In this document: piece after piece, positions 7,326 to 63,838 of the stretch | Layout: every line of letters starts with the position of its first letter | How positions within the stretch are numbered: the first letter of the stretch is position 1 | Assembly: GCA_041644975.1 (NCBI GenBank) | Contig: JBAZQX010000006.1 | Location: forward strand, 9,761 to 73,760 | DNA from: Candidatus Doudnabacteria bacterium | Lineage (GTDB): Bacteria; Patescibacteriota; JAQUNI01 | Direction: 5' to 3' | DNA: 64,000 nucleotides | Program-made: the position numbers and the translations under genes | The notes under the pieces: model-generated | Told to the model about the DNA's origin: nothing | What the model saw: only the letters and a program-made list of their open reading frames with translations | Database searches by the model: none

Positions 7326-7483
7326 CGTCATTGCGAGGAGTCCCGAGCTTGTCGAGGGACGACGAAGCAATCTCATCGAGCGTAATATCTAGTTTTATGA
7401 GATTGCCTGCCCGCCATCGCTTCGCTTCAGGCGAGGCGGGCGGGCTTCGTCGTCGGGCTTCTGCCCTCCTCCTCGCAATGACG
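7326..7483. mobile_element. MITE-like nested palindrome, family B (TIR cgtcattgcgagg / cctcgcaatgacg)
   Basis: ~158-bp imperfect palindrome containing the core gcctgcccgccatcgcttcgcttcaggcgaggcgggcggg; related copies at 22700, 39184, 58864 and the core alone at 23021, 32914, 38286, 38936, 51862. Confidence 0.7.
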
Positions 7484-12289: not shown

Positions 12290-13813
12290 ATGCTTGAAAC
12301 TTCCTTTCAATTATTCCAAAAACAACAAAAATATCTGGAGAAGATGCAGAAAGAGCGACCGGATTTGTTTGAAGTGGACAAGTTGTTTAGGGAGGAAGAA
12401 GTCCTCCCGCAAATTGGGATCACTACCCTAGACCCCAAACGACCCGAAGGTTTTCTGCGTCTTTATCCCCAAGATTTTATTGTTGAAGAAATCCAAAAGG
12501 ATGGAAGTTTGAGCCAAATTGAACCGAAAGACAATGTGCCCGAAAAACCTAAAGAAGAAAAATTTACCCTCTATGCCGATCTGGTTAAAGTAGGAATCTC
12601 TACTTTGGAAGTTGTAAGCCGTCTAGCCAAAGCCTTGGAAATAACACCGAATAAAATCGGGTACGCGGGAATCAAAGATGCCCAAGCGCTATCCAGTCAA
12701 AGAATCGCTCTGCCTAAAATTGGATATGAAAAAGTAAACCCCGTTAGAGAACTTCATTCTCTAACGGTTCCCGCTAACGGTGGCATTAAACCACCGTCAG
12801 CGTCTATATCTTCCCCACCACCGACTTCGTCGGTGGCTTTCTCTAACGGGGTAAAGGATTTAAAGTTAGAGGGGTTTTTTTTAAACAATTTTTTCTATGG
12901 TCGGGGGACAGTAGAGGTTGGAAGCCTGCTTGGCAACCGTTTTACCATCTTCGTCCGCACCGAGAAACGTTTTCCGCGCGAAGAATTAAAAAATAAATTA
13001 GCGGCTATAAAAGAAAAGGGGTTCTTAAACTATTACCAAACCCAACGCTTTGGCGGCGCGAGAATGTTAAGCCACATTCTGGGAAAGTTAATCTTGCAAA
13101 AAAAATATGAGGAGACGGTAAAAACATTCCTCACCACGCCCAGCGATTATAACATTAAACTAATCAAAGCCGTGCGCGCTCGAGCCGCGGAAAATTATGG
13201 CAATTGGAAACGAATGCGGGAAATATTAAATCATCTGCCTTACAACTTTCAGAATGAAATAAAAATATTGGAATATTTGGAAAAATATCCCAGCAATTTC
13301 ATTGGCGCCTTAATCGCCCTCCAAGACCAAACCCAACTTTGGGTCTATGCCTACGCGAGCCTCTTATTTAACGAATATTTATCCTGGGCGACTGAAAATA
13401 ATGAAACCATTCCCCGCGATATCCCTTTGCTTTTAAGCCCTGATTATCAAGACCAAAATTTCTACCGCGTTCTCCTTGACCGCGACGGAATTCGTGATTT
13501 GCAAGAAGCCTTGCGGCCTTTTAAATTTATTCCGATCAAAAGACGTTTTAACCCCGCCTTAATTTTCCTTAAAAACATTCTTGCCAAATCTCTGATGAGT
13601 GGCGTTATCATCAGCTTCTCCTTGGATAAGGGCGCCTATGCCACAACATTCTTAATGAATCTCTTTAAACTGCGCCAGGGTTTGCCCATTCCCGCATGGC
13701 TTAATCGCGATCAGATTGACAGTAAAAAGATCCTGGAAATCGGCACTTGTGAACCGGCTTGCGAGAGATTAAAAGAATATATTTTTTCGGTGTTGGATTA
13801 TGAGAAAGAGTAA
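12290..13813 (+). CDS. truD: tRNA pseudouridine(13) synthase TruD carrying an in-frame repeat insertion
   Basis: YPQDFIVEE N-terminal motif, GIKDAQA catalytic Asp region, NYYQTQRFG motif; 507 aa is long for TruD because of the 12736-12852 element. Confidence 0.8.
   Translation: MLETSFQLFQKQQKYLEKMQKERPDLFEVDKLFREEEVLPQIGITTLDPKRPEGFLRLYPQDFIVEEIQKDGSLSQIEPKDNVPEKPKEEKFTLYADLVKVGISTLEVVSRLAKALEITPNKIGYAGIKDAQALSSQRIALPKIGYEKVNPVRELHSLTVPANGGIKPPSASISSPPPTSSVAFSNGVKDLKLEGFFLNNFFYGRGTVEVGSLLGNRFTIFVRTEKRFPREELKNKLAAIKEKGFLNYYQTQRFGGARMLSHILGKLILQKKYEETVKTFLTTPSDYNIKLIKAVRARAAENYGNWKRMREILNHLPYNFQNEIKILEYLEKYPSNFIGALIALQDQTQLWVYAYASLLFNEYLSWATENNETIPRDIPLLLSPDYQDQNFYRVLLDRDGIRDLQEALRPFKFIPIKRRFNPALIFLKNILAKSLMSGVIISFSLDKGAYATTFLMNLFKLRQGLPIPAWLNRDQIDSKKILEIGTCEPACERLKEYIFSVLDYEKE
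12736..12852 (+). mobile_element. family A MITE-like element inside the truD ORF (in frame)
   Basis: aaaccccgttagagaacttcattctctaacgg ... ccaccaccgacttcgtcggtggctttctctaacgggg; near-identical to intergenic copies at 63700-63838 and 57066-57234. Confidence 0.7.
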
Positions 13814-20569: not shown

Positions 20570-20632
20570 AAACCCCGTTAGAGAACCTCGTTCTCTAACC
20601 CCGTTTAAAAATTTATTTCTAACGGGGTAAAC
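20570..20632. mobile_element. family A MITE-like element (short form)
   Basis: aaaccccgttagagaacctcgttctctaaccccgtttaaaaatttatttctaacggggtaaac. Confidence 0.65.
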
Positions 20633-30342: not shown

Positions 30343-30402
30343 TACCCCGTTAGAGAACTTCGTTCTCTAACCCCGTTTAGAAATTTATTTCTAACGGGGT
30401 TT
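30343..30402. mobile_element. family A MITE-like element (short form)
   Basis: ccccgttagagaacttcgttctctaaccccgtttagaaatttatttctaacggggt. Confidence 0.65.
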
Positions 30403-38935: not shown

Positions 38936-38975
38936 CCCGCCCGCCATCGCTTCGCTTCAGGCGAGGCGGGCGGGC
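38936..38975. repeat. family B core repeat
   Basis: ccccgcccgccatcgcttcgcttcaggcgaggcgggcggg. Confidence 0.65.
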
Positions 38976-39097
38976 ATCTCCCCCTCTTAATCAAGGGGGG
39001 AGTAAAAATCCTTGCTTTTTTTCTTTAGATATGATATAATATAACCATCAAGTACAAAGAGCTCGCCCCGTGTCTAAAGCGAGCTTTTCGGCTTTTT

Positions 39098-56643: not shown

Positions 56644-56852
56644 AAATAATTTCCAAAAATATAAATTAACCCTTCACTAAAGTTCAGGCCGTTCAGGCTC
56701 TGAAGAGCCTTCAGGCTCGAAGAGATGCCAAATAAATCCGAAACATTAAGAGACTCCGCATCTCCTATTTTTCACAAAGTATTATATTTAAAGTTTCAAA
56801 TTGCTGTTTAAGCCCTCCTTCTCGCCTTTCAGGAACTCAAGGGGTTCCCCAG

Positions 56853-57020
56853 AGCCAATTATAAGCGAGGTTTGAAGGATGTCGCTCGCGAACGACTATC
56901 CTGAAATTGGCTATTCGGTCGAAATGAAAATTCCATTTTTATTCCTGCCTTCTAGAGCCAATTATAAGCAGAGCTTGAAATTCTTGTTCGGTCTAAATGA
57001 AAGTTGACTTTCATTTATTC
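56853..57020. repeat. two ~80-bp direct repeat units, the first embedding a family C palindrome
   Basis: agagccaattataagc(g/a)ag ... ttcggtc(g/t)aaatgaaa(a/g)tt occurs twice; unit 1 contains aaggatgtcgctcgcgaacgactatcc. Confidence 0.5.
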
Positions 57021-57065: not shown

Positions 57066-57234
57066 AAACCCCATTAAAGAACTTCATTCTTTAACGGTTT
57101 TCGCTGACACCGTTAGATGTTTACTATCTAACGGGGTCAGCATCTATATTTTTCCACCATCGACTTTGTCGACGTGTCCCGTTACAAATTCATTTGTAAC
57201 GGGATGAACTTTCTCTAACGGGGTAAAAAAACCG
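57066..57234. mobile_element. family A MITE-like element (long form)
   Basis: aaaccccattaaagaacttcattctttaacgg ... ccaccatcgactttgtcgacg ... ctttctctaacggggtaaa. Confidence 0.6.
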
Positions 57235-57597: not shown

Positions 57598-57702
57598 ACC
57601 CCGTTAGAAACATGCCCCGCAGCTAGGCTAGCGGTTAATGTAGAAATATAGATAACTCGTGCGGTTGGGTTTCATGCCCCGCGCGAGTTTCTAACGGGGT
57701 TG
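57598..57702. mobile_element. family A-related element (divergent)
   Basis: gaccccgttagaaacatgccccgc ... catgccccgcgcgagtttctaacggggttgac. Confidence 0.5.
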
Positions 57703-57809: not shown

Positions 57810-58919
57810 ATGAAGCAAGAAATTAAAAAAATTCAAAAGGAATATGAAACGATCTTGAGCGCGCTTTCCGAGCCTGCTGCTATTTCTGATCCAGCGAAGC
57901 GAGCTTCCCTTAGTAAAAGAGGCGCTAGGCTTCAAACCATACTCGCGGAGTATGAAAATTACAAAAAAATTCAGAAAGAGATTAGAGAAACTGGAACCTT
58001 GCTTGTTGATCCCGAACTTAAAAAGGAAGCGGAGCAAGAATTGCAAAATTTAAAAAGTAAAGAGACGCAGATCAGGCAGAGTTTGGAGGAAAAATTAAAT
58101 CCCCCAAATCCCAATGACGTCAAAGATGTAATTATGGAAATCCGCGCCGGCGCCGGCGGCGATGAAGCCGGACTTTTCGCCGCCGATCTTTTTCGGATGT
58201 ATTCACGTTATGCTGAACAACGCGGATGGGAGATAAATCTTCTTAATTCCAGCCGCACAGGCATCGGCGGCTTTAAAGAGATTATCTTTGAGGTGAACGG
58301 CAGCGATGTTTTCAGCCACTTAAAATACGAAAGCGGAGTGCATCGCGTCCAACGCATACCGGAAACCGAAAAGTCGGGGCGTATCCACACCTCCACGGCT
58401 TCCGTCGCGGTTCTGCCTCAAGCCGAGGAAGTGGAAATCAAAATCAAACCGGAAAATTTACGCATTGACGTTTACCGTTCTTCCGGACCCGGCGGCCAAA
58501 GCGTAAACACCACCGATTCCGCTGTCCGCATCACCCACCTGCCCACCGGCTTGGTTGTTTCCTGCCAAGATCAAAAATCACAACTTAAAAACAAAGAAAA
58601 AGCGCTTCAGGTTCTCCGCTCTCGCTTGCTCGTTCAAAGGCAAGAAGAAGAAGCAAAAGCGCAAGGCAAGGCAAGACGTGCTCAAATTGGCGGGGCTAAA
58701 CGCGCTGAAAAAATTCGCACCTATAATTTTCCCCAAGACCGCGTCACAGATCACCGGATCAAAAAAAGTTGGCACGGTATAGAAAAAATTTTAAATGGGG
58801 AATTGGATGATATTGTTAAAACGACAAAAAAAAGTATTGAAACTAAGGGCATAAATATAATTCGTCGTTGCGAGGAGGCCGCCCCAAAGCGGCCGACGAA
58901 GCCCGCCCGCCTCGCCTGA
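57810..58919 (+). CDS. prfA: peptide chain release factor 1
   Basis: GGQ motif (SGPGGQSVNTTDSAVRITHLPTG) and RF1-type domains; the last ~18 codons run into a family B element, so the C-terminus is uncertain. Confidence 0.9.
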   Translation: MKQEIKKIQKEYETILSALSEPAAISDPAKRASLSKRGARLQTILAEYENYKKIQKEIRETGTLLVDPELKKEAEQELQNLKSKETQIRQSLEEKLNPPNPNDVKDVIMEIRAGAGGDEAGLFAADLFRMYSRYAEQRGWEINLLNSSRTGIGGFKEIIFEVNGSDVFSHLKYESGVHRVQRIPETEKSGRIHTSTASVAVLPQAEEVEIKIKPENLRIDVYRSSGPGGQSVNTTDSAVRITHLPTGLVVSCQDQKSQLKNKEKALQVLRSRLLVQRQEEEAKAQGKARRAQIGGAKRAEKIRTYNFPQDRVTDHRIKKSWHGIEKILNGELDDIVKTTKKSIETKGINIIRRCEEAAPKRPTKPARLA

Positions 58920-59051
58920 AGCGAAGCGATGGCGGGCAGGCAATCTCATAAAATTAGATAATTTTGGGATGACAAGTTTTTTCTTTTTTAGGAGATTGCC
59001 GCATCGCTTCGGCTCCGTTTCTACTCGCGCCTCGCTCCTCGCAATGACGAC
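58864..59051. mobile_element. family B MITE-like element spanning the prfA-prmC junction
   Basis: cgtcgttgcgaggagg ... gcccgcccgcctcgcctgaagcgaagcgatggcgggcagg ... cctcgcaatgacgacg. Confidence 0.6.
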
Positions 59052-59059
59052 GTACGCTA

Positions 59060-60235
59060 ATGACCATCTCCCAAGCCTTATCCCAAGCCATGAAAAAACT
59101 CAAATTGAGCAAAATTCCCTCCGCCCCTTTAGACGCGGAGATTTTATTATCTTCTGTTTTAAGGAAAAAACGAGAATATCTGCTTGCGCACCCAGGGGAC
59201 GCCATAACTCTCAGCCAAAGCCAAAAATACCAAGCCTTAATCTCGCGCCGCGTTAAAGGTGAACCCGCGGCTTATCTCACGCATCACAAAGAATTTTACG
59301 GTCTGGATTTTTATGTCAATAAAAATACTCTCATCCCGCGGCCGGAGTCAGAATTAATCATTGAGGAGGTCAAAAAAATTGCAGCATCACCAATCATTAT
59401 TGACGTAGGCACAGGATCGGGGTGTCTCGCGATTACCTTGGCGTACAGCATACCGCAAGCTGCTGTCTACGCCACTGACCTTTCGCCAAAAGCGCTTTCT
59501 ATCGCCCGAAGAAACGCCCGCTTACATAAGATAAACCCCGTTAGAGAACCTCGTTCTCTAACCCAGTCTAGAAATTTATTTCTAACGGGGCTAAAATCGG
59601 CGGGTTTCTCTAACGGGATAAAAATCAAATTCCTGCGAGGCAATCTCCTTTCGCCCTTGCCGTCTTGCGTTTGGCAGCTGCCAAGCAAAAAAATTATTAT
59701 CGCCAATCTCCCCTATCTTTCAGAAAAATACCGCAAAGATATTCGCGACACGAGCTTAAGATATGAACCGCGAGAAGCTCTTTGGGGCGGCAAAGACGGT
59801 TTAAAATATTACCGGCAATTATTTCAACAAATTTCCAAAATTATACAATCTCGCGCAATAGACCTCACTATTTTAATTGAAATTAATCCGGAACAAACAA
59901 TTAGAATAAAAAAGGTAATTAAACAATATCTTCCCTGCGCGGAAATAAAAATAAAAAAAGACCTCGCGGGTCTTAATCGTATTGCAGTTATTCAAATGGA
60001 CAGGCGAAAGCCTGCTAAAATGAGGTCATGCTGCGAGAGCGCGACACAGGTAAGTGTCAGACTTTCGCCCTTACAGGACCTTCGGCCTGACCTCCAAAAT
60101 AACACACTTTCCGCCTGCGTCCGCAAAAGGCGGACTGCGGCGAGACGAGGTCGTGTGTTACTCCAAAAATTGCTCCCACCCCCTCTTGTCTCCCCCTGTT
60201 TGTCTTCTCTTCAGAGTCTGAACGACCTGAACTAG
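59060..60235 (+). CDS. prmC: release factor glutamine methyltransferase PrmC (HemK) with in-frame repeat insertion and C-terminal read-through
   Basis: PLDAEILLSSVL N-terminal motif, SAM motif IDVGTGSGCLAITLA, NPPY-type ANLPY; 391 aa versus ~280 expected; the last ~80 codons run through GC-rich repeats. Confidence 0.8.
   Translation: MTISQALSQAMKKLKLSKIPSAPLDAEILLSSVLRKKREYLLAHPGDAITLSQSQKYQALISRRVKGEPAAYLTHHKEFYGLDFYVNKNTLIPRPESELIIEEVKKIAASPIIIDVGTGSGCLAITLAYSIPQAAVYATDLSPKALSIARRNARLHKINPVREPRSLTQSRNLFLTGLKSAGFSNGIKIKFLRGNLLSPLPSCVWQLPSKKIIIANLPYLSEKYRKDIRDTSLRYEPREALWGGKDGLKYYRQLFQQISKIIQSRAIDLTILIEINPEQTIRIKKVIKQYLPCAEIKIKKDLAGLNRIAVIQMDRRKPAKMRSCCESATQVSVRLSPLQDLRPDLQNNTLSACVRKRRTAARRGRVLLQKLLPPPLVSPCLSSLQSLNDLN
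59533..59616 (+). mobile_element. family A MITE-like element inside the prmC ORF (in frame)
   Basis: aaaccccgttagagaacctcgttctctaacccagtctagaaatttatttctaacggggctaaaatcggcgggtttctctaacggga. Confidence 0.7.
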
Positions 60236-60245
60236 TTTCAGGATC
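60207..60245. repeat. family J hairpin repeat (cagagtctgaacgacctgaa ... ttcaggatct)
   Basis: Second copy at 61066-61112. Confidence 0.5.
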
Positions 60246-60522
60246 TAACCTTTCTTGCCCTGTAGTCCGCCTTAGGCGGACAGGGCTTGCTTTCCAATAA
60301 TTTTTGTTTTTTATATTTAAAAACCAACCTTTTGTATTCGGCAAGCCGCTTTTCGGCCTTAAAAACCTTTGTCTGCAACAAAACAAAGCTTTTCCCGCTC
60401 CCCTTGCCCTTCTTAAATAAATCTATTTTTTTTCTAATCTCCTTGAGCTCTCCTTCAAAACTGGCAAGCTTTGCTAAAAGCACTGTCCGCTTAATCTTCG
60501 TCTTTTTATTTTTCTCGGGCAT
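60238..60522 (-). CDS. small basic protein (hypothetical)
   Basis: 94 aa, Lys-rich; the C-terminal region overlaps a repeat. Confidence 0.3.
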   Translation of the reverse strand: MPEKNKKTKIKRTVLLAKLASFEGELKEIRKKIDLFKKGKGSGKSFVLLQTKVFKAEKRLAEYKRLVFKYKKQKLLESKPCPPKADYRARKVRS

Positions 60523-60559
60523 AGAGCATTAGAATATAAAATCAAAATAATAAAGGGGG

Positions 60560-61024
60560 TTATTTTATTTTTAAAAAGGTTTGGCATTCTCTTATGTCCT
60601 TTCGCATTGCCCCAAACTGATTTTCTAAAATAAAAAACTTCTCTTTGTCTAATTTCTTCTCTTTTAATTCTCTGATATCCTCTTTGATTCCCATAATCTC
60701 ATCTTCAATGCGGGAAAGATACTGCAAAATAGATTTAAAATTATCCCGCATCTCTTGTTCTAGACCATCTATTCTCTGGCTTAAATTTTTCCCCAAACCA
60801 TCCATTTTTTGATCCAGACCATCCATTCTTTGATTTAAGCCCGTCTGACCCTCTGCTAAAATTTTAATATTATCATTCACATTTTCCAATAATACAGCAA
60901 CATCGCTCTCCTTAAAAATTTTTTCTTGCTTCTTAGGTATTTTTTTTAATTTTTGAATCATAATTTTCAAACCTCTACTTTTAGTATACCATTTCCAATT
61001 TTTTAAGTTAAATGTTATCCACAA
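60560..61024 (-). CDS. coiled-coil protein (hypothetical)
   Basis: Heptad-like repeats MDGLDQKMDGLGKNLSQRIDGLEQEM. Confidence 0.35.
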   Translation of the reverse strand: MWITFNLKNWKWYTKSRGLKIMIQKLKKIPKKQEKIFKESDVAVLLENVNDNIKILAEGQTGLNQRMDGLDQKMDGLGKNLSQRIDGLEQEMRDNFKSILQYLSRIEDEIMGIKEDIRELKEKKLDKEKFFILENQFGAMRKDIRECQTFLKIK

Positions 61025-61198
61025 TCTGTGCTTTAAAAAGGAATCTCGGCTCTGTCATCTCTTCAGAGTCTGAAGACTCTTCGGAGTCTGAACGACCTGA
61101 ATTTATTTCAGGATCTCCTCTTTAAACATGAAGATGCTGAACCAAGTTCAGCAAGACATTTTGAGCAGGGGGAGTAAGTTTTGTAATTCAAGGTATTA

Positions 61199-63699: not shown

Positions 63700-63838
63700 A
63701 AACCCCGTTAGAGAACTTCATTCTCTAACGGTTCTATTAAACCACCGTCAGCCCCGTTAGAAATTTATTTCTAACGGGGTCAGCGCCTATATTTTTCCCA
63801 CCACCACCGACTTTGTCGGTGGCTTTCTCTAACGGGGT
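63700..63838. mobile_element. family A MITE-like element (long form)
   Basis: aaaccccgttagagaacttcattctctaacgg ... ccccgttagaaatttatttctaacgggg ... ccaccaccaccgactttgtcggtggctttctctaacgggg; directly upstream of rplY. Confidence 0.65.

Follow-up and report, generated by a model that had tools for sequence, protein, structure and literature searches.

An insertion in prmC (hemK), the release factor methyltransferase gene of a Candidatus Doudnabacteria genome, is very probably a nonautonomous transposable element of the miniature inverted-repeat (MITE) type that is read through by its host gene as 29 extra amino acids. The gene lies in a 64,000-nt stretch of contig JBAZQX010000006.1 of assembly GCA_041644975.1 (positions 9,761 to 73,760 of the forward strand), which we call the window and whose first letter is position 1 in all coordinates below. 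A first-pass annotation, made from the letters of the window alone, had assigned the insertion to a short repeat that it called family A. The prmC open reading frame (ORF; 59060 to 60235, plus strand) encodes 391 amino acids with the 29-residue insert included; the NCBI gene model starts at 59090 and yields 381 amino acids, and the product is 100% identical to the NCBI entry for the peptide chain release factor N(5)-glutamine methyltransferase of Candidatus Doudnabacteria (P0001). Its Pfam matches comprise the PrmC N-terminal domain (PF17827, E = 2.5e-19) and S-adenosylmethionine (SAM) methyltransferase domains, and the methyltransferase matches all end at residue 157 to 160.

The prmC frame from 59531 to 59617 reads INPVREPRSLTQSRNLFLTGLKSAGFSNG, which amounts to 29 codons, or 87 nt. 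Within it, the element proper spans 83 nt (59536 to 59618, plus strand) and stands between two copies of the tetranucleotide TAAA, the left at 59532 to 59535 and the right at 59619 to 59622, that form a target-site duplication. The element has three parts, all on the plus strand. Module 1 (59536 to 59562) consists of the left terminal inverted repeat (TIR) CCCCGTTAGAGAAC, a CTC loop, and the internal inverted copy GTTCTCTAAC. Module 2 (59563 to 59590) is a degenerate version of the 28-nt hairpin CCCCGTTAGAAAT-TT-ATTTCTAACGGGG, with its left arm mutated to CCAGTCTAG. The 28-nt tail (59591 to 59618) contains the 3' half of a third hairpin and the right TIR (GTTTCTCTAACGGGA, with the last G changed to A), and it corresponds to the right end of the long form, as seen for example in locus L066. 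The first 55 nt are identical at 52 of 55 positions to two intergenic copies at 20573 and 30345. Judged from these alignments, the prmC copy would be a rearranged and shortened derivative of the 113-nt form of the family, with the 55-nt form joined to 28 nt of a long-form right end. A composite of module 1, module 2, and a longer right end is present in another metagenome (three contigs from one sample), and a metagenome scan for the junction of the two modules gave no counterpart of the 83-nt prmC copy. When nhmmer was run with a profile compiled solely from other genomes' copies, 59532 to 59622 matched it over its whole length (model positions 1 to 121, E = 1.3e-12), and the predicted RNA fold of 59520 to 59630 has an energy of -35.3 kcal/mol (z = -5.2).

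The insertion sits between NARLHK(V/I) and KIKFL. Only the window PrmC has the 29 extra residues; in alignments with 13 and then 95 homologues, the insert was not seen in any of the 95, and the same loop shows a variation of one or two residues in four of them (P0009, P0011, P0019, and P0099). The first-pass annotation had placed a family A copy between NARLHK and the ANLPY (NPPY) motif, composed of modules 1 and 2 and read in frame as the peptide given above. The position, the peptide, both modules, and the maintained frame, with the catalytic residues kept, all hold up, although its length of 84 bp falls short of the 87 extra nucleotides and the 28-nt tail had been overlooked.

The state of the site before insertion can be read from two relatives. 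Locus L071 (GCA_028717685.1) is syntenic with the window across tsf, rpsB, rpmE, prfA, prmC, and a DUF3048 gene and is 90 to 95% identical to it at the DNA level in the flanking genes; within prmC, identity is 89.7% upstream of the insert and 79.2% downstream. Its site, CACAAGGTAACAATCAAA (CACAAG GTAACA ATCAAA), and that of L072, CACAAGGTGAAAATTAAA (CACAAG GTGAAA ATTAAA), each hold a single target copy and no element, where the window has CATAAGA-TAAA-(83 nt)-TAAA-AATCAAA. Once the 83-nt element and one of the two TAAA copies are deleted, the protein reads His-Lys-Ile-Lys-Ile-Lys, colinear with the His-Lys-Val-Lys-Ile-Lys of the relatives. We also considered a 5-bp duplication, (G/A)TAAA, since prmC has ATAAA on both sides, and ruled it out because many copies of the family differ at the fifth position to the left and because the right side retains the element's own G. 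An intein or intron was ruled out as well, given that the insert is 87 nt long, matches no such family, and is a read-through loop.

Family A extends well beyond this genome. A scan for module 1 with one genome per species returned 70 loci, labeled mostly as Omnitrophota, with others labeled as Nitrospirota (including a 1.09-Mb contig), Planctomycetia, Saccharibacteria, Ratteibacteria, and a deltaproteobacterium; some of these labels may reflect binning or naming. Copies range from 31 to 199 nt and contain no transposase ORF, their frames being read-through peptides only. The shortest form is a perfect 31-nt hairpin, CCCCGTTAGAGAAC-TTC-GTTCTCTAACGGGG, and the canonical 113-nt form consists of the left end with an adjacent inverted copy, two hairpins, and the right end TTCTCTAACGGGG. 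Across 25 copies, the terminal inverted repeats CCCCGTTAGAGAA ... TTCTCTAACGGGG are 97% paired. In the two inner hairpins, eight pairs have changed on both sides, and the covariation score was equaled in none of 500 shuffles.

The flanking tetranucleotides of 73 copies co-vary, being TAAA/TAAA in most and TTTA/TTTA, TGAA/TGAA, CAAA/CAAA, or TAAG/TAAG in others. Together with the empty sites of prmC and truD, this co-variation shows insertion with a 4-bp target duplication, and the G that precedes the left TAAA in most copies makes G|TAAA the preferred target (TTTAC when read on the other strand). The family thus has the small size, TIRs, target duplication with empty sites, and dispersed copies by which MITEs are recognized. 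We also considered insertion exactly at stop codons (G-TAA-A) as the main niche and rejected the idea, as only about 6 of the 73 copies lie at the stop of an ORF of at least 80 codons. Rfam at gathering thresholds returned nothing in the whole window except five tRNAs, and the truD copy gave only chance-level matches at E values up to 10, so family A is not a described RNA family. The end sequence was not found in the literature, nor did publications on MITEs in Patescibacteria or Omnitrophota, or on bacterial MITEs with a 4-bp TAAA duplication, yield a description of family A.

Repeat finding and inspection together gave eight copies of family A and related elements in the window, and the window has five occurrences of the module 1 26-mer against an expectation of zero from 100 shuffles. 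Two of the eight, those in prmC and truD, are genic and in frame, and the other six are intergenic. The truD gene (12290 to 13813) carries a canonical 113-nt element (12739 to 12851) that, with its TAAA/TAAA duplication, occupies 12735 to 12855 on the plus strand and adds 39 amino acids. Its product has 507 residues, compared with 468 in a 94%-identical homologue, and the 39-residue insert was not seen in any of nine aligned homologues. Here too a relative, L073, preserves the empty site, GAAAAAGTAAAGGATTT, where the window reads GAAAAAG-TAAA-(113 nt)-TAAA-GGATTT. The claim of the first-pass annotation that two housekeeping genes had acquired independent in-frame insertions is therefore borne out, with empty sites in relatives for both. 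The truD copy is 93% identical to copies in a metagenome-assembled genome of Omnitrophota, an identity that points to horizontal spread.

The intergenic copies are more varied. A family A copy lies at about 125 to 155. On the plus strand there are 55-nt copies with modules 1 and 2 at 20573 to 20627 (duplication TAAA/TAAA) and at 30345 to 30399 (TTTA/TTTA), a 155-nt copy with nested hairpins upstream of rpmE (57069 to 57223), and a 135-nt copy (63703 to 63837) that contains a nested 28-nt hairpin. Between rpmE and prfA, also on the plus strand, is a related 101-nt element (57599 to 57699) with the ends CCCCGTTAGAAAC / GTTTCTAACGGGG and the duplication TTGA/TTGA. The hairpin nested in the 135-nt copy, CCCCGTTAGAAATTTATTTCTAACGGGG, is the one of which module 2 of the prmC copy is a degenerate version, and it is flanked by its own TCAG/TCAG duplication at a place where the uninterrupted copy at 12739 to 12851 has a single TCAG; even minimal hairpins are therefore mobile, and targets other than TAAA are used. 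All six module 1-bearing copies in the window are in the plus orientation regardless of the orientation of their targets, and GC skew is negative over all 64 kb, as in one replichore. This gives a weak hint, at about p = 0.03, of a strand bias of module 1 copies that is linked to replication.

We determined the reading frames of 73 well-bounded copies. Each element end is stop-free in one phase only, so that read-through needs a length of 3n+2, that is, a length that becomes divisible by 3 when 4 is added. The canonical 113 nt plus the 4-nt duplication make 39 codons (117 nt), and each strand then offers a single stop-free frame; of 18 copies of this length, 10 have an open frame on each strand, 7 on one strand, and 1 on neither. 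Other in-frame lengths were seen at 83, 95, 110, 143, and 161 nt, and no copy of 31, 55, 60, 69, 108, 112, 114, 115, 135, or 199 nt is stop-free in any of the six frames. Along the element's own strand, the open phase reads GTA-AAC-CCC-GTT..., with the target read as Val/Ile-Lys and a product of the form ...V-NPVRE...FSNG-V-K...; both genic insertions in the window lie at Lys-Val/Ile-Lys. The open phase of the opposite strand begins TTT-ACC, and the target is then read as Phe-Thr. When the interiors were shuffled with the ends fixed and the length kept in frame, 41% were stop-free on the same strand, 39% on the opposite strand, and 20% on both.

Read-through copies recur in other genomes. About 16 of 26 in-frame long copies lie inside long ORFs, a count from which other lengths are excluded by construction, and among the proteins that carry them are an inositol-monophosphatase-like protein, PilZ and TonB proteins, and six that resemble prepilins. 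An exhaustive HMMER profile search of 1.84 billion representative proteins gave 47 matches to the translated element, most of them ORFs of 45 to 75 amino acids over intergenic copies. Annotated proteins of this size with little beyond the element (P0121 to P0129, P0131, P0135, P0139, and others) are probably spurious gene calls over such copies. The same search placed the element peptide within a methylguanine-DNA methyltransferase, a radical SAM protein, a glycosyltransferase (GT4), PilZ and TonB proteins, a LysM-TPR protein, and a 1897-amino acid multidomain HAD/IMPase protein. A word-indexed protein profile search returned eight small ORFs only and missed the window's own TruD, and it is not a census. 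Genic copies used in one orientation have acquired stops in the unused frame.

In six pilin-like genes of Omnitrophota (L007, L010, L030, L031, L040, and L041), the element is inserted in the opposite orientation, precisely at the Phe-Thr codons (TTT-ACx) of the motif G|FTLIEL, where prepilins are cleaved. The product reads M..GF[TPLEKAADFSRR...RERSSLTGF]TLIEL, and because the cleavage motif is duplicated, the added peptide could leave with the leader and the mature pilin be unchanged.

An AlphaFold model of the window PrmC built with 96 sequences has a mean predicted local distance difference test (pLDDT) score of 92.4, while 10-residue blocks over residues 161 to 190 average 53 to 64; the insert is modeled as a low-confidence loop between the helix of residues 143 to 155 and the strand of residues 189 to 193 in the Rossmann fold. 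The best match of the model in the PDB is Escherichia coli PrmC in complex with release factor 1 (2b3t_A, E = 3.2e-22, target-normalized TM-score 0.91), and it also matches Thermotoga maritima HemK. In class I methyltransferases, the loop leading into strand 3 is found at the sheet's edge, facing away from the SAM and substrate pockets, and the PrmC insert loop would likewise lie away from them. The TruD model is similar, with a mean pLDDT of 90.5 and the insert residues 152 to 184 below 50, as coil between two strands. Both insert peptides are mildly hydrophilic (grand average of hydropathy, -0.43 and -0.11).

All invariant and nearly invariant residues of the 96 PrmC proteins are kept in the window PrmC, including DVGTGSG and NLPY. 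The latter, the presumed equivalent of the NPPY catalytic motif, is intact at 59705 to 59716 (plus strand); all 96 aligned proteins, which are the database proteins most similar to the query, have NLPY in place of NPPY, and the leucine is therefore a feature of this clade and not damage. No stops or frameshifts interrupt the 391 codons. The distance to the outgroup P0004 is 0.70 for the N-terminal part of the window PrmC, compared with 0.70 and 0.68 for the insert-free relatives, and 0.60 for the C-terminal part, compared with 0.57 and 0.55. The window PrmC is thus no further from the outgroup than its insert-free relatives, and it gives no sign of decay. Judged from sequence conservation and the predicted structure, PrmC probably stays active, and the insertion would be neutral or mildly harmful rather than useful.

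How could two housekeeping genes in one window come to carry translatable copies? We propose that a transposase supplied in trans, putatively of the DDE type, would insert the element at G|TAAA through a 4-bp staggered cut. In gene-dense genomes, most such targets would fall in genes, and purifying selection would remove insertions whose phase or length is wrong or that hit a structured portion of a protein. An element of length 3n+2 that lands at GTA-AAx (or ATA-AAx) or at TTT-ACx in a surface loop would be read through and could persist. Both genic copies in the window would then be in frame because purifying selection leaves only in-frame, stop-free insertions located in loops; a fixed target phase together with purifying selection on host genes is sufficient for two in-frame survivors.

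The first-pass annotation went further and suggested that the length and composition of the element are themselves constrained to be translatable. Under this hypothesis, family A would be a coding-compatible transposon, spreading horizontally across phyla, whose 3n+2 length, open frames on two strands, phase-setting target, and hydrophilic loop peptide are adaptations that would allow it to colonize the coding sequence of small, gene-dense genomes. Part of the evidence is in keeping with it: the modal length of 113 nt is retained in three or more interior subfamilies whose overall identity is just 76 to 83% and which differ by compensating indels, 9 and 7 out-of-frame stop triplets are avoided by the open frames of the two strands, the additional in-frame lengths listed above occur as well, in-frame genic copies recur in many genomes and in several phyla, and the insert peptides of the window are mildly hydrophilic. 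Out-of-frame or stop-bearing genic copies, which would have spoken for disruption, were not seen, as every copy in a long ORF is in frame and stop-free in a test by which gene-splitting copies are unrecognizable. However, untranslatable subfamilies (31, 55, 60, 108, and 114 nt) have still multiplied, unused frames decay in genic copies, and a stop-free interior arises by chance with a frequency of 0.4 per strand, or 0.2 for both, which, multiplied by one-third for an in-frame length, leaves about 0.07 to 0.14. Chance could thus yield so permissive a design with a probability in the range of about 0.07 to 0.2. The conserved length could equally reflect the spacing needed by the transposase. We therefore regard adaptation at the level of the element as possible but doubtful. 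If it were true, family A would live inside the genes of streamlined genomes, as in the prepilin Gly-Phe-Thr motif, where the peptide would be cut off with the leader.

It is conceivable that prmC has been inactivated by the insertion or is decaying, with the intact frame a recent accident. The gene has lost its ancestral stop position and has a 78-amino acid C-terminal tail, the DNA of its 3' half is only 79% identical to that of L071 (about 90% elsewhere), and there are 22 window-specific residue differences in the C-terminal half. These differences cluster in a segment that is variable across the family, though, and the conserved residues, the outgroup distances, the uninterrupted frame, and the confident model described above make decay very unlikely. 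Movement as a hairpin of single-stranded DNA, like that of IS200/IS605 or of repetitive extragenic palindrome (REP)-associated tyrosine transposases (RAYTs), with TAAA as a recognition or cleavage tetranucleotide instead of a duplication, would fit a hairpin-dominated element with compensatory changes and a strong choice of target (G|TAAA), as well as the shared orientation of the six module 1 copies in a window of uniformly negative GC skew. We nevertheless consider it improbable, since the flanks co-vary as direct repeats over many tetranucleotides (within another copy, TCAG is used), the tetranucleotide is present just once at empty sites, and the ends are true TIRs. With a multicopy element in a metagenome-assembled genome, an assembler could in principle have spliced the repeat into prmC. 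Such an artifact is hardly credible in view of the exact junctions, the 4-bp duplication, the preserved frame, and the same kind of in-frame insertion in many independent assemblies; moreover, the prmC copy is unique, an 83-nt composite with private substitutions, and was therefore not copied from another locus in the window.

The MITE interpretation, which we favor, also has evidence weighing against it. No autonomous partner was found, as neither the window nor the 70 loci (8 kb each) contained pairs of ends 400 to 5,000 nt apart that enclose a gene; the candidate paired ends and solo ends in these loci are independent small copies or degenerate ends. Module 1 had no matches in IMG/VR, and blastn of the consensus against PLSDB gave none. 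The compensatory changes in the hairpins suggest a structural requirement beyond simple cut-and-paste. The 78-amino acid tail and the lowered identity of the C-terminal half of prmC could hint at relaxed constraint, and the metagenomic origin of the window counts on the same side.

The surroundings of prmC are themselves rich in repeats. Directly upstream lies prfA (57810 to 58919, plus strand), which encodes release factor 1, the substrate partner of PrmC, and the order prfA-prmC is also found in L071. The last codons of prfA (RRCEEAAPKRPTKPARLA) are made of a different, G+C-rich palindromic repeat (...GCCCGCCCGCCTCGCCTGAAGCGAAGCGATGGCGGGC...; 58865 to 58935) that recurs at 7406 to 7448 and 38936 to 38978; the prfA protein has 369 amino acids in the window and 350 in L071, and its C-terminal sequence before the stop differs too. 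At the other end of prmC, the ORF runs 78 codons past the conserved C terminus (...IAVIQ), beyond the stop position of L071 and L072. The resulting tail (about 60001 to 60235) has no counterpart in homologues and falls within a block by which the window exceeds L071 by about 630 bases. The PrmC homologues P0007 and P0002 have Pro/Ala/Arg-rich inserts of about 11 to 45 residues in a different loop (columns 285 to 330 of alignment A1). These Patescibacteria inserts are probably G+C-rich repeats read in frame, and inserts derived from repeats may be common in PrmC. Extra blocks relative to L071 at 56688 to 56920, 57090 to 57211, 58822 to 59078, and 59997 to 61195 are intergenic, lie around rpsB, rpmE, prfA, and prmC, and consist of repeats where inspected; the window lineage has recently gained much repeat DNA.

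Among known systems, the MITEs of other bacteria offer one comparison. The Correia elements (CREE) of Neisseria, ERIC, and QMITE1 of Coxiella are, like family A, small and multicopy, with TIRs, a target duplication, no capacity to encode a transposase, and occasional overlap or fusion with ORFs (PMC10969869, PMC5896051, PMC3184786). Correia elements duplicate TA, and the direct repeats of QMITE1 are 2 to 4 bp long and variable in sequence (PMC10969869, PMC5896051, PMC3184786), whereas family A duplicates 4 bp, mostly TAAA. Family A also occurs in several phyla, with 91 to 93% identity between Doudnabacteria and Omnitrophota copies, which is unusual for MITEs. REP/BIME (RAYT) and IS200/IS605-derived elements resemble it as short, hairpin-dominated repeats with a strong local target preference, but they are extragenic and make no target duplication, while family A has TIRs, duplicates 4 bp, and enters genes. 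Because it makes a target duplication, it is not an element of the REP/RAYT or IS200/IS605 type. Members of the IS1380 family and piggyBac-like elements make 4-bp (sometimes 5-bp) duplications and have ends beginning CC(C), and piggyBac targets TTAA with the ends CCCTAGAAAG; the target of family A is TAAA, not TTAA.

In behavior, the closest known system is the Rickettsia palindromic elements (RPEs; Ogata et al. 2000, Science 290:347), which are described in PMC10969869 as lying in frame in many unrelated genes. As portrayed there, RPEs share with family A a short palindromic structure (about 100 to 150 bp), in-frame placement in unrelated housekeeping genes, and a conserved peptide at positions compatible with the fold, with no transposase known for either. 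The likeness is claimed for behavior, and a sequence relationship is not expected: family A is hosted by Patescibacteria, Omnitrophota, Nitrospirota, and others rather than Rickettsia, and it is distinguished by its 4-bp duplication with empty sites, its phase-fixing target G|TAAA, and its 31-nt minimal hairpin. We conclude that it is an undescribed family of the RPE-like or MITE kind.

These results extend in-frame selfish DNA in housekeeping genes, best known from Rickettsia, to uncultivated lineages with small genomes, such as Patescibacteria and Omnitrophota, and they do so with a precise mechanism in view: insertion at G|TAAA duplicates 4 bp, and relatives preserve the empty sites. Inserts of this kind inflate and distort metagenomic protein families, create spurious small ORFs, and can mislead annotation and phylogeny. 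Family A also amounts to a natural experiment that can reveal where, among the loops of essential enzymes, 29 to 39 extra residues are tolerated. Finally, its near-identical copies across phyla mark a horizontal flow of DNA between co-occurring lineages of groundwater and sediment, and this cross-phylum spread, along with the phase-setting target, is the feature of the family most worth following.

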